Source of the DNA: Escherichia phage vB_EcoM_AYO145A
Sequence record: KR014248
Strand: one strand, 5' to 3'
Length of the DNA stretch: 64,000 nucleotides
This document shows positions 6,038 through 7,781 of this stretch, piece by piece. The notes under the pieces were generated by a model, which was not told where the DNA came from, ran no database searches, and worked only from the letters and a program-made list of their open reading frames with translations. Position numbers and translations under genes: made by a program. How positions within the stretch are numbered: position 1 is the stretch's first letter; every line of letters starts with the position of its first letter.

Positions 6038-6595
6038 ATGAGATATTTGAAGTATGCTTCATGGATTTTCTTAGCTTTGTTAGAGCCATTTGCAGCAATC
6101 TTAGCAGTTATCTTAGCACCTTTCGTAGTTCCATTCTACAGTGAGAAGAAAGGCCACTTACCTTTCGGATTTAGATGGATGGAGACCTATGACAACCCGA
6201 TTGATGGTGATGAAGGCCACGTTAAAAGATGGGCTAAGATTAGAAAGATTGGTAAGCTCGGTGTTTATATGCAGAGAGTTGGATGGCTCTGGAGAAACAA
6301 AGCTTATAACTTCTCTTACCATGTATTAGGAAGAGATGTAAAAGATGTTACTAAGTGGAAAGGTAATATCAACGTAAGTTCTAACCCTGAAGATAATCAG
6401 ACAGGTTATCTCCTAATGTGGAACAGTAATGCTTGGGGATTATTTGCTTTTATCCCATCTATTAAAGTCTTTGGTAAACAATTCTACTGGAGAATTTATG
6501 TTGGGTGGAAACTAAAAAGTGTTGTCCCAGAAGAAAGAGCATTCTCAAGGGAAAGAGTTATGTTGGCATTCTTTATTCATCCACTAAGAAAATAA
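6038..6595 (+). CDS. hypothetical membrane protein embedded in tRNA array (N-terminal hydrophobic helix)
   Basis: ORF track 185 aa; N-terminus WIFLALLEPFAAILAVILAPFVVPF is transmembrane-like; flanked by tRNA genes. Confidence 0.55.
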   Translation: MRYLKYASWIFLALLEPFAAILAVILAPFVVPFYSEKKGHLPFGFRWMETYDNPIDGDEGHVKRWAKIRKIGKLGVYMQRVGWLWRNKAYNFSYHVLGRDVKDVTKWKGNINVSSNPEDNQTGYLLMWNSNAWGLFAFIPSIKVFGKQFYWRIYVGWKLKSVVPEERAFSRERVMLAFFIHPLRK

Positions 6596-6603
6596 AGATT
6601 TAA

Positions 6604-6679
6604 AGGGGATTAGTTTACAAGGTTAAAACCTCGGTCTTTGAAATCGAAGAAGTTGGTTCAATTCCAACATCCCCCGCCA
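6604..6679 (+). tRNA. tRNA-Gln (anticodon TTG), CCA encoded
   Basis: Acceptor AGGGGAT/ATCCCCC (A1-C72 mismatch), anticodon stem TCGGT/ATCGA loop CTTTGAA, T-arm GTTGGTTCAATTCCAAC. Confidence 0.7.
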
Positions 6680-6681
6680 AT

Positions 6682-6760
6682 GCTCCATTACTCCAATTGG
6701 CAGAGAGGCCAGACTTAAAATCTGTGTTATGTATCGGTTCGAATCCGATATGGAGTACCA
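6682..6760 (+). tRNA. tRNA with Leu anticodon TAA, class-I architecture, CCA encoded
   Basis: Acceptor GCTCCAT/ATGGAGT, D-arm CTCCAATTGGCAGAGA, anticodon loop CTTAAAA, T-arm ATCGGTTCGAATCCGAT, A73. Confidence 0.6.
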
Positions 6761-6764
6761 AATT

Positions 6765-6841
6765 TAGCGGTATAGCATAACTGGCAATGCAACAGTCTCT
6801 GAAGCTGTCCTATTAAGGTTCAAATCCTTATGCCGCTGCCA
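6765..6841 (+). tRNA. tRNA-Gln (anticodon CTG), CCA encoded
   Basis: Acceptor AGCGGTA/TGCCGCT, anticodon stem ACAGT/GCTGT loop CTCTGAA, T-arm TAAGGTTCAAATCCTTA. Confidence 0.7.
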
Positions 6842-6872
6842 CTTCTAAGGGTTCTTACGAGAGTCCTTAAAT

Positions 6873-6948
6873 GTGGCCTTATCATAAAAGGTAATGACCC
6901 ATGCTGTGAACATGGTCTATACGGGTTCAAATCCCGTAGGTCACCCCA
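6873..6948 (+). tRNA. tRNA-His (anticodon GTG), CCA encoded
   Basis: Acceptor GTGGCCT/AGGTCAC, anticodon stem CCATG/CATGG loop CTGTGAA, T-arm ACGGGTTCAAATCCCGT. Confidence 0.75.
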
Positions 6949-6953
6949 ATTTA

Positions 6954-7028
6954 TAGTCCAAGTAGCTTATATGGTTAAAGCGCGTGTCTGAAAAACATGA
7001 GAAGAGGGTTCAAATCCCACTGGACTAC
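6954..7028 (+). tRNA. tRNA-Phe (anticodon GAA)
   Basis: Acceptor TAGTCCA/TGGACTA, anticodon stem CGTGT/ACATG loop CTGAAAA, T-arm GAGGGTTCAAATCCCAC. Confidence 0.7.
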
Positions 7029-7046
7029 CAATTTCAAAGGTGCTTA

Positions 7047-7781
7047 ATGAAAGAGATGACAGAACAAGGTAAGGAGATTTTTAATCTCTTAAAAACCGGT
7101 AAAGGGTTCTCTAACCCGCTTATTACTGGTGCAGCAGTTCTCGGTGGAACCGTAGCTGCTTCTACATCACTTGTAAGCTCTATTAGTTCTGTAACAGACC
7201 CTACAATGAAGGAGAAACTTGTTGCTGCTGGACTTACAACAGTCCTTTTAAACAGCTTTACAACAAGCCTTACAAGCACTACAGCAACTACTAAGACCCT
7301 AACAGACTACGGTCAAAAGTCTATTGATGAGTTTTCATCACGTATGCAGGTAGCAAAGGGATACTCCAATGTTATGGGTGCAGTAGGAGAACAAGTTGGT
7401 TGTACACCATTCAGTGGTATTATGGGTGTTGCTACAGAGTATGGTCAAAAAGCTATTGACACAATTAACAGTGCACTAGACGGTGTTAATGATGTATTAA
7501 GTGACTTACAAGATGCTATTGATAAAGGTCTTGATACTGTTTCTGATTTAGCTAACCAAGCTGTTAGTAAGATTAATGAAGGTATCTCAAAGATTACAGC
7601 TTATGCAGATGAAGTTGTGCAGATGATTGAAGAAGAAGCTGCCCTTATTGCAGAGTACCTTAAAACAAATATCAATGGGTTCTTAGCAGGTATCTTACCA
7701 GACTGGTTTGATGATGCTTGTAAAACTGGTGTGATTGATACTATTGCAACACCAGAAATGAAGAACGCATTACAGAAATAA
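7047..7781 (+). CDS. hypothetical Ser/Thr/Ala-rich protein embedded between tRNA genes
   Basis: ORF track frame 6984-7781, but 6984-7028 overlaps tRNA-Phe; first ATG with AAAGG RBS is at 7047 (MKEMTEQGKEIF...). Confidence 0.55.
   Translation: MKEMTEQGKEIFNLLKTGKGFSNPLITGAAVLGGTVAASTSLVSSISSVTDPTMKEKLVAAGLTTVLLNSFTTSLTSTTATTKTLTDYGQKSIDEFSSRMQVAKGYSNVMGAVGEQVGCTPFSGIMGVATEYGQKAIDTINSALDGVNDVLSDLQDAIDKGLDTVSDLANQAVSKINEGISKITAYADEVVQMIEEEAALIAEYLKTNINGFLAGILPDWFDDACKTGVIDTIATPEMKNALQK

Follow-up and report, generated by a model that had tools for sequence, protein, structure and literature searches.

Two genes of function-unknown families within the tRNA array of a Felix O1-like phage: a putative accessory membrane-protein cassette and a conserved core gene

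Protein-coding genes within phage tRNA regions have a well-known example in segB of T4, which is a free-standing homing endonuclease gene. The closest described counterparts of the two genes considered here are ORF48 (NP_944875.1, 'Phage conserved protein') and ORF49 (NP_944879.1, hypothetical) of phage Felix O1. The stretch analyzed, 64,000 nt of Escherichia phage vB_EcoM_AYO145A (KR014248; the window), has a tRNA array that is interrupted by two long open reading frames (ORFs) on the plus strand: ORF1 (6038-6595), the ortholog of ORF48, between tRNA-Arg(acg) and tRNA-Gln(ttg); and ORF2 (7047-7781), the ortholog of ORF49, between tRNA-Phe and tRNA-Ser(gct). The Felix O1 genes occupy the same slots, are of the same lengths (558 and 735 nt), and differ from those of the window by a nonsynonymous divergence (dN) of ~0.016. 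Felix O1 differs in having three extra HNH genes in other spacers, and its record leaves tRNA-Ser(gct) unannotated after ORF49, making tRNA-Cys the right neighbor of that gene. Both genes are thus already known as long-annotated Felix O1 ORFs, and they belong to function-unknown families, DUF7338 (phrog_2143) for ORF1 and DUF7217 (phrog_2114) for ORF2; a literature search with the two DUF names returned no mention of either. The explanation that we favor, and regard as moderately probable as a whole, is that the window is a Felixounavirus genome in which both genes belong to the tRNA transcription unit, ORF1 being an accessory cassette whose product most likely acts at the cell envelope and ORF2 a core gene whose product is made early, with neither encoding a nuclease or an RNA-modifying factor.

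Several described systems resemble the two genes in part. The HNH genes ORF44, ORF45 and ORF47 of Felix O1 are like ORF1 and ORF2 in their location in tRNA-array spacers and in their presence or absence among close relatives; unlike them, ORF1 and ORF2 have no nuclease domain, ORF1 encodes a predicted membrane protein, and ORF2 is syntenic and fixed. The DUF7217 proteins ORF129 of Dickeya phage LIMEstone1 and orf171 of CBA120 share with ORF2 the invariant residues G18, F21, N23, P24, L25, C119, W220 and C225. Ackermannviridae members of this family have 25-29% identity to ORF2, no adjoining tRNA, and a late promoter annotation together with virion detection, whereas the Ounavirinae genes lie in the tRNA unit. 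Finally, T4 Imm and Sp, T5 Llp, and Cor are phage membrane proteins that act in superinfection exclusion or receptor masking. ORF1 may be compared with them as a small, envelope-associated accessory gene with patchy distribution and early expression, whose distant DUF7338 relatives lie beside tail-fiber or receptor-binding genes; there is no homology, and the comparison is offered as a working analogy rather than a classification.

Both ORFs are genuine genes under strong purifying selection. That they are real, and not chance ORFs, follows from full-length Pfam matches, numerous related records and low dN/dS ratios. ORF1 (185 aa, 21.9 kDa, pI 10) scores 208.5 bits with DUF7338 (PF24027; cutoff 27, E = 8e-62), residues 1-184 aligning to positions 1-176 of the 180-position profile, and it matches phrog_2143, labeled "unknown function", at E = 2e-81; full-length membership in this family explains nothing mechanistic. 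ORF2 (244 aa, 25.6 kDa, pI 4.4) scores 298.9 bits with DUF7217 (PF23854; cutoff 29, E = 3.9e-89), residues 8-243 aligning to positions 2-238 of 238, and matches phrog_2114 at E = 2.1e-111. By tblastn, ORF1 is matched in 564 phage records and ORF2 in 579. Pairwise dN/dS is 0.01-0.12 for both ORFs against Felix O1, EcoM2 and JLBYU32, and for ORF2 also against Sf13, similar to the 0.02-0.04 of the terminase gene; values against Roscha1 were discarded because that ungapped comparison was saturated. In GC content, overall and at third codon positions, the two genes are like the rest of the phage.

An initial annotation, made from the sequence alone, had recognized two protein-coding genes inside the array with tRNAs on both sides, and ARAGORN and the ORF list agree with this. 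ORF1 starts at ATG 6038, with a Shine-Dalgarno sequence, AAGAGG, at 6024-6029. The choice of ATG 7047 as the start of ORF2 was also sound: it is preceded by AAGGTG at 7037-7042, the other candidate, GTG 6984, is within tRNA-Phe and lacks a Shine-Dalgarno sequence, and homologs across the family are 242-247 aa long and align from residue 1. The product is one residue shorter than the 245 aa then given, and its description as Ser/Thr/Ala-rich is apt (T 11%, A 9.8%, S 8.2%), with Gly abundant as well. The statement that the genes have no recognizable motifs does not hold, since both are full-length members of named families, though families of the function-unknown kind. By the annotation's own account, homology to conserved core genes with known function would have spoken against it; ordinary and conserved they are, but a known function is not attached to either.

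On sequence comparison the window is a Felixounavirus genome. A 2.5-kb query around ORF1 and ORF2 matched 290 phage records. Of these, 212 cover at least 80% of the query at 95-99% identity, many of them at around 97%, and these 212 are Felix O1-like myoviruses (Ounavirinae, Felixounavirus), the best being Escherichia phage REP5 at 97.7%. The array comprises 25 tRNA genes at 3010-7955 on the plus strand, called by ARAGORN, matched by the Rfam tRNA model, and annotated alike in Felix O1, EcoM2 and JLBYU32. ORF1 is separated by 19 nt from tRNA-Arg(acg) on its left (5943-6018) and by 8 nt from tRNA-Gln(ttg) on its right (6604-6679). On the left of ORF2, 16 nt lie between tRNA-Phe(gaa) (6955-7030) and ATG 7047, and on its right a single nucleotide separates the stop codon from tRNA-Ser(gct) (7783-7875), which with tRNA-Cys(gca) forms the end of the array (7783-7955); all of these ARAGORN calls are on the plus strand. 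Downstream of ORF2 the order is a 66-aa ORF, the large terminase gene and the portal gene, an arrangement common to the window and the Felix O1 reference.

The product of ORF1 contains no cysteine and has an N-terminal hydrophobic segment at residues 9-33 (Kyte-Doolittle 2.38, 19-residue window). An AlphaFold2 model built from an alignment of 34 homologs (predicted local-distance difference test, pLDDT, 94.9; predicted template-modeling score, pTM, 0.84) has a helix at 2-33, several short helices and a five-stranded sheet, and the segment and the helix together bear out the initial description of a membrane protein. Across the 34 homologs (32-96% identity) the invariant residues are P28, T50, D52, G57, W83, W85, R86, N87, Y90, G98, G109, G123, R152, G156, W157 and K158, of which T50, D52, R86, N87, R152 and K158 are polar; N53 is present in at least 90%. 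A structure search of BFVD returned only uncharacterized members of the same family. ORF1 is accordingly modeled as a basic, single-pass membrane-anchored protein with an alpha/beta domain of ~150 residues, whose predicted fold has no solved neighbor.

The DUF7338 family appears to be essentially phage-borne. A profile search found 884 clusters at 50% identity; the best 150 matches are nearly all standalone proteins of ~165-200 aa, and the eight longest of these 150 carry DUF7338 alone. Among 185,579 representative bacterial genomes searched with one strict pattern there were six loci, one of which is a T4-like phage contig. Some individual members may be mentioned. A copy with 59% identity to ORF1 is found on NZ_JBHSCL010000010.1, a 178-kb contig the size of a T4-like genome in a Flagellimonas marina assembly, which is probably phage contamination of that marine Bacteroidota assembly. 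One viral contig (L096) has two tandem DUF7338 paralogs, at 18-560 and 1752-2303. In a 172-aa metagenomic protein (P0074), encoded on a 1.2-kb contig, half of DUF7338, the N-terminal one, is followed by a Gp53-like tail-fiber C-terminal domain; this protein may be an assembly chimera.

Comparative evidence supports the view, based on sequence, that ORF1 is an accessory and horizontally mobile gene, whose close relatives have moved among the tRNA clusters of virulent enterobacterial phages that are unrelated to one another. When the interval between tRNA-Arg and tRNA-Gln is aligned with those of Mooglevirus Sf13 and Kolesnikvirus Roscha1, a clean indel is seen: about 575 bp, carrying no gene but ORF1, are inserted in the window, and in Sf13 and Roscha1 just 9 and 2 nt separate the tRNAs. 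The alignment of the indel places a short direct repeat (repeat family D18, plus strand) at its boundaries, with an 11-nt left copy, ATTTAAAGAGG, at 6019-6029, which contains the Shine-Dalgarno sequence of ORF1, and a right copy, ATTTAAAGGGG, at 6598-6608, which runs into tRNA-Gln. The repeats are of the type ATTTAAAG(A/G)GG. Their role as the indel boundary is suggestive, this being a short, two-copy repeat drawn from the common CCAATTT-type spacer of the array that could have arisen by chance.

Copies of ORF1 in other phages are found in other slots. Hafnia phage Zyzzx, also of the Ounavirinae, has a copy with 87% identity between tRNA-Asp and tRNA-Ser(tga), and Av-05 of the Vequintavirinae has a DUF7338 copy with 79% identity between tRNA-Gly and tRNA-Gln. 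T4-like phages have copies with 55-62% identity. In Karamvirus Pet-CM3-4 the DUF7338 gene is located between tRNA-Phe and a tRNA-Met that is unannotated in the record, and in S16, Slopekvirus VAC13 and RB43 it is 0.9-1.0 kb downstream of the local tRNA genes, which in VAC13 and RB43 consist of a single tRNA-Met, the sole tRNA within 5 kb. Pseudomonas phage VCM (Otagovirus) has a much more distant copy, with 28% identity, which is flanked by tRNA-Gln(ttg) and tRNA-Arg(tct) within a 17-tRNA array.

How general this association is was assessed by scanning DUF7338 loci in IMG/VR and running ARAGORN on them. In the Felixounavirus loci a tRNA lies 11 nt downstream in 7 of 7 cases, and in the other loci with at least 55% identity there is a tRNA within 1.1 kb in 22 of 23; among loci with 42% identity or less, none of 30 has a tRNA within 2 kb. 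Because proximity to tRNAs depends on identity in this way, the association is a property of one clade from virulent enterobacterial phages, with VCM as an outlier, rather than of the DUF7338 family as a whole. The suggestion of the initial annotation that both genes are accessory or mobile can therefore be retained for ORF1, given the indel, the other slot in Zyzzx and the copies in unrelated phages, but not for ORF2, which is in the same place in all four Ounavirinae lineages examined. As to mechanism, tRNA clusters appear to tolerate insertions, the HNH genes of Felix O1 being a parallel, and recombination at tRNAs or spacers between co-infecting phages may move the ORF1 cassette. The association with tRNAs would then indicate how the cassette travels, and not what it does.

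Clues to function may instead come from the distant DUF7338 relatives, which are found downstream of baseplate or tail-fiber genes and often just before an endolysin gene. In Aeromonas phage Ah1 the order is tail fiber, DUF7338 and, 2 nt later, lysozyme e. In one metagenomic contig (L010) the order is tail fiber, a 193-aa protein, DUF7338, a 96-aa protein, a GH108 endolysin and an Rz-like gene, and further metagenomic myophage contigs have similar arrangements. Because these relatives follow tail-fiber genes and often precede an endolysin, ORF1 most likely acts at the cell envelope, possibly in superinfection exclusion, in receptor or envelope modification, or in the tuning of lysis, and probably not as a holin. 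There are considerations that weaken this proposal: the membrane orientation of ORF1 is ambiguous, the charge balance being similar on either side of the helix, and the proposed envelope role is drawn solely from topology and from the gene neighborhoods of distant relatives.

ORF2 is, by sequence and synteny, a core gene of the Ounavirinae and not a mobile one. In all four lineages examined, namely Kolesnikvirus (44-45% identity), Mooglevirus (82%), the Hafnia phage and Felixounavirus, it occupies the 3′ end of the array, with the small ORF, the terminase gene and the portal gene coming directly after it. Its predicted structure is an all-helical bundle (AlphaFold2, pLDDT 94.2), and residues 25-43 form a Gly/Ala-rich segment of borderline hydrophobicity (Kyte-Doolittle 1.62). 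In 29 homologs, down to 25% identity, the invariant residues include D223 in addition to the eight named above. The homologs in Ackermannviridae have the capsid gene on one side and gp3/uvsY on the other, and the nearest 5 kb contain no tRNA. We consider ORF2 most likely to be an early-made membrane- or lipid-interacting protein that would be, at best, a low-copy passenger of the virion.

Two features of the Ackermannviridae loci can be noted here. The gene beside DUF7217 on the opposite strand (6721-7371, minus strand, in L005; 5721-6374, minus strand, in L008) encodes a protein of ~216 aa with an apparent lipoprotein signal (…LLLVSC or …LALTSC), and just upstream there is a gene for a 55-aa protein with a single transmembrane (TM) segment, which puts DUF7217 of Ackermannviridae in a small envelope-associated cluster.

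The transcription of the two genes can be considered from both the sequence and published data. Two putative intrinsic terminators follow tRNA-Cys on the plus strand. The first is a long GC-closed hairpin at 7993-8046 followed by TTTTTT (7993-8052; found by RNA folding); the second consists of GACGGTCTCTGTGCCGTC (8118-8135) followed by TTTTTT (8118-8141), and is positioned just before the small ORF and terminase gene. The region 7975-8150 folds at -57.7 kcal/mol (z = -6.45), and none of 200 shuffled sequences was as stable. In Felix O1, transcripts measured by reverse transcription PCR (RT-PCR) were maximal at 5 min for ORF45, 46, 48 and 49, at 25 min for ORF52, and at 60 min for ORF51 and 53 (PMC3185647). 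The terminators and the RT-PCR results together place ORF1 and ORF2 in the tRNA transcription unit rather than in the late packaging and head operon. A consensus scan gave two sigma-70-like promoter matches, at 2863-2891 and 2954-2983 on the plus strand, just 5′ of the first tRNA gene (tRNA-Pro), and a third promoter-like match (11/12) inside the array at 4383-4411 (plus strand); for Felix O1, a P41-type promoter has been reported for the tRNA transcription unit (PMC3185647). The unit appears to run from host-type promoters 5′ of tRNA-Pro to the two terminators after tRNA-Cys, and ORF1 and ORF2 would each be translated from their own Shine-Dalgarno sequences within this tRNA-packed transcript. 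Some points weigh against this account: promoter-like sites are no more numerous than expected from shuffled sequence, which makes the matches candidates only; the RT-PCR timing is noisy, with capsid gene 58 also scored as "early" (PMC3185647); and the excision of the ORF1 and ORF2 mRNAs by host tRNA-processing enzymes, which would leave almost no untranslated regions, is deduced from the spacers of 1-19 nt.

There are multiple alternative scenarios for the role of ORF1, some of which extend to ORF2. One scenario, which we consider improbable, is that ORF1 is a holin that accumulates in the inner membrane and opens holes for the endolysin. In its favor, and against our own interpretation, three GenBank records (EcoM2, JLBYU32 and Citrobacter phage HP1) label the family as holin. 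ORF1 also shares the gross topology of the class III holin T of T4, namely a short N-terminus, one TM helix and a C-terminal globular domain of ~150 aa, and some DUF7338 genes adjoin an endolysin gene, being just 5′ of it in Ah1, S16-like phages and metagenomic myophages. There is, however, no sequence-family or fold match between holin T and ORF1, nor any match of ORF1 to a holin family in Pfam, PHROGs or NCBIfam. The gene is absent from Sf13 and Kolesnikvirus, phages that nonetheless have to lyse the cells they infect, and the metagenomic contig L010 has a separate small candidate holin with two TM segments beside its endolysin; the T4-like phages that carry DUF7338 presumably also have their own t holin. 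In the window the gene is between tRNAs and away from the lysin, and in Felix O1 its expression is maximal at 5 min. Although no holin was identified in Felix O1, gp48 is not among the candidates named by its authors, which are gp79, 116, 118, 119 and 131 (PMC3185647). The "holin" label for the ORF1 family is, in our judgment, unsupported. A functional tie of ORF1 and ORF2 to the tRNAs themselves, through processing, modification or protection, or by countering host defenses that cleave tRNA, seems more improbable still. It would fit with the recurrence of DUF7338 in or beside the tRNA clusters of Ounavirinae, Vequintavirinae, Straboviridae and Otagovirus, and with the presence, directly 5′ of the array, of a gene for a Ro60-like RNA-binding protein that is reported to counter a defense system. 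But ORF1 is predicted to be membrane-anchored and has no RNA-binding or nucleotide-binding signature, all 30 of the more distant DUF7338 members and the Ackermannviridae homologs of ORF2 are without nearby tRNAs (within 2 and 5 kb, respectively), and the plasticity and recombination of tRNA regions, which also gather HNH endonuclease genes, provide a simpler explanation. We give no greater credence to a bolder form of this idea, in which the enterobacterial DUF7338 clade is a cargo module functionally tied to phage tRNA islands, a membrane-anchored protein of new fold that moves with tRNA genes between virulent phages and shields the infected cell, or the translational resources of the phage, from attack by anticodon nucleases or imported tRNase toxins, or cooperates with the tRNAs in some other way. 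In a weaker version, the DUF7338 cassette would be shuttled between phage families with tRNA genes as portable anchors for recombination. Finally, ORF1 and ORF2 could be selfish mobile genes, homing endonucleases or the like, that invaded the array, as might be suggested by the HNH genes found elsewhere in the arrays of Felix O1 (three) and EcoM2 (one) and by the presence/absence polymorphism of ORF1 with its flanking repeat. This we find scarcely credible, and domain searches effectively refute it, together with the homing endonuclease or RNA-modifying roles proposed in the initial annotation: neither ORF matches a nuclease domain, be it HNH, GIY-YIG, LAGLIDADG or another kind, or a domain for tRNA modification, in searches taken to E = 1 in Pfam and PHROGs and to 0.1 in NCBIfam. 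Moreover, ORF1 has a TM helix, ORF2 is an all-helical bundle that is syntenic across the subfamily, and both genes are under strong purifying selection and fixed in >200 Felixounavirus genomes.

For ORF2 the main alternative is a place in the virion as a minor component, perhaps an internal or ejected protein that enters the host membrane at DNA delivery, the gene being then the first of the structural module. We regard this as unlikely, yet as a more serious possibility than any of those just discussed. Evidence for it, which speaks against ORF2 as an early non-structural protein, comes from LIMEstone1, where the ORF2 homolog ORF129 (27% identity) is a "confirmed structural protein" of 25.03 kDa, detected in purified virions by two peptides with 18% coverage, and has an annotated late promoter; the LIMEstone1 virion list, however, also includes obvious non-structural proteins (DNA ligase, PhoH and gp44). 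In Ounavirinae the small ORF, the terminase gene and the portal gene always follow directly on ORF2, a position in keeping with a structural role, but ORF2 is parted from the late genes by the two terminators and was scored early by RT-PCR. Likewise, the hydrophobic Gly/Ala helix and two invariant Cys residues may fit a membrane-inserting protein, and there is weak PHROG similarity to tape-measure and hub proteins, the tape-measure matches being of low-complexity, coiled-coil type. Also on the side of a virion protein, the abstract of the Felix O1 paper lists Gp49 as structural (PMC3185647). The "gp49" of that study, however, is a 51-kDa band, proposed to be the sheath, whereas ORF49 encodes 25.6 kDa and is absent from the shotgun virion list (PMC3185647), and gp63 (48.9 kDa) fits the band. 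For these reasons the listing of Gp49 is probably a labeling slip, one that may propagate into annotations. In other relatives, proteomics of VpaE1 identified 22 virion proteins and its supplement leaves the ORF2 homolog, ORF47, as hypothetical, with no structural label, and the homolog is not in the Sf14 table of gene products with mass spectrometry detection. The Bas63 virion has at least 23 gene products, 22 of them partly modeled, and ORF2 is not a modeled chain in the virion structures of Bas63 or Sf14. In keeping with this, ORF2, like ORF1, matches no PDB chain, while the portal protein of the window finds 9mt4 and 9c39 at E = 0. The EspM4VN proteome paper gives no information on the ORF2 homolog, and the text of the PhageMaP essentiality study of Bas63 is silent on the counterparts of ORF1 and ORF2.

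Other candidate identities for ORF2 were considered and rejected. A tail tape measure is not expected at 244 aa and within a tRNA array, and the PHROG matches (E from 4e-6 to 0.4) cover coiled-coil segments only; the proposed tape measure of Felix O1 is gp67 (PMC3185647). A small terminase subunit was weighed since ORF2 and the small ORF precede the large subunit gene and Felix O1 has no annotated small subunit, but there is no match to a small terminase family in Pfam, PHROGs or NCBIfam, and around the Ackermannviridae DUF7217 genes the 5-6 kb examined in each direction contain no terminase gene. A scaffold was likewise considered and rejected. In the searches made with the two ORFs, sequence matches in the PDB to haemagglutinin HA2 and Dpo4 (E at least 0.045) are coiled-coil noise, and NCBIfam matches to ZorA and encapsulin cargo are far under the cutoffs. 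A match to PHROG 289, with its "GTP-binding domain" label, was rejected as a functional lead because it is an artifact of a composite profile: positions 20-146 of the profile match LIMEstone1 ORF131 (140 aa), and positions 259-500 match the unrelated DUF7217 protein ORF129. The two parts can be seen at an Ackermannviridae locus (L005), at 5324-5746 and 5992-6720, and matches to this profile can mislabel DUF7217 proteins. ORF131 looks SLOG/DUF2493-like; it has no homolog in the window.

By itself the finding is a minor one: both genes have long been annotated as hypothetical, in a phage genus that is very well sampled. Its most interesting by-product is the apparent hopping of the ORF1 clade between tRNA clusters. 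DUF7338 is a large family with a confidently predicted fold, and because one clade is almost always in tRNA clusters, it may serve as a handy case for the study of cargo exchange between tRNA islands. In addition, the "holin" annotation of the ORF48 family is spreading within Felixounavirus without support. Because phages of the Felix O1 type have diagnostic and therapeutic uses, it would be useful for their engineering to know which array genes are probably dispensable (ORF1) and which are conserved (ORF2).

The remaining observations concern the array and its neighbors. The spacers of the Felix O1 array (3531-6227 of the Felix O1 locus) contain the three HNH endonuclease genes ORF44, ORF45 and ORF47 and the small ORF46, and EcoM2 has its single HNH endonuclease gene between tRNA-Gly and tRNA-Thr. 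There are no HNH genes in the array of the window, where the gaps at 3675-4133, 4368-4935, 5026-5280 and 5605-5610 contain no ORF of >85 aa. The presence of such genes in Felix O1 and EcoM2 and their absence here point to the array as a hot spot for the gain and loss of selfish genes.

A tRNA-like element at 4616-4694 (plus strand) is not called by ARAGORN and reaches 31.7 bits with the Rfam tRNA model, for which the gathering score is 29. The anticodon stem-loop of the element, CGGTCTTCTAAACCG, is identical to that of the tRNA-Arg(tct) found in the same gap in Sf13, and the element has an extra insertion of 18 nt. This may be a 26th tRNA, an Arg-UCU whose variable arm is long, or else a copy in decay. 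Directly 5′ of the array, the gene at 1429-2844 (plus strand) encodes a 471-aa protein that corresponds to Felix O1 ORF42 and is labeled in relatives as RNA-binding or vWFA. The PhageMaP preprint describes its Bas63 counterpart, gp130, as Ro60-like, reports that it counters the Ppl defense system, and speculates that some of the "tRNAs" of the array are Y-RNA-like partners.

At the other end of the array, an ORF of 75 aa at 7844-8071 (plus strand) overlaps tRNA-Ser, tRNA-Cys and the first terminator. It is listed as a protein in relatives, namely ORF48 of VpaE1, whose best match is Felix01p101 (75 aa), and is almost certainly a spurious gene call. The large terminase ORF (8385-10001) has TTG 8385 as its mechanically assigned start. 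An in-frame ATG at 8400 has a strong Shine-Dalgarno sequence, GGAGGTG, at 8389-8395 and agrees with the 1602-nt terminase gene annotated in Felix O1, EcoM2 and Sf13, and the start is most likely at 8400.

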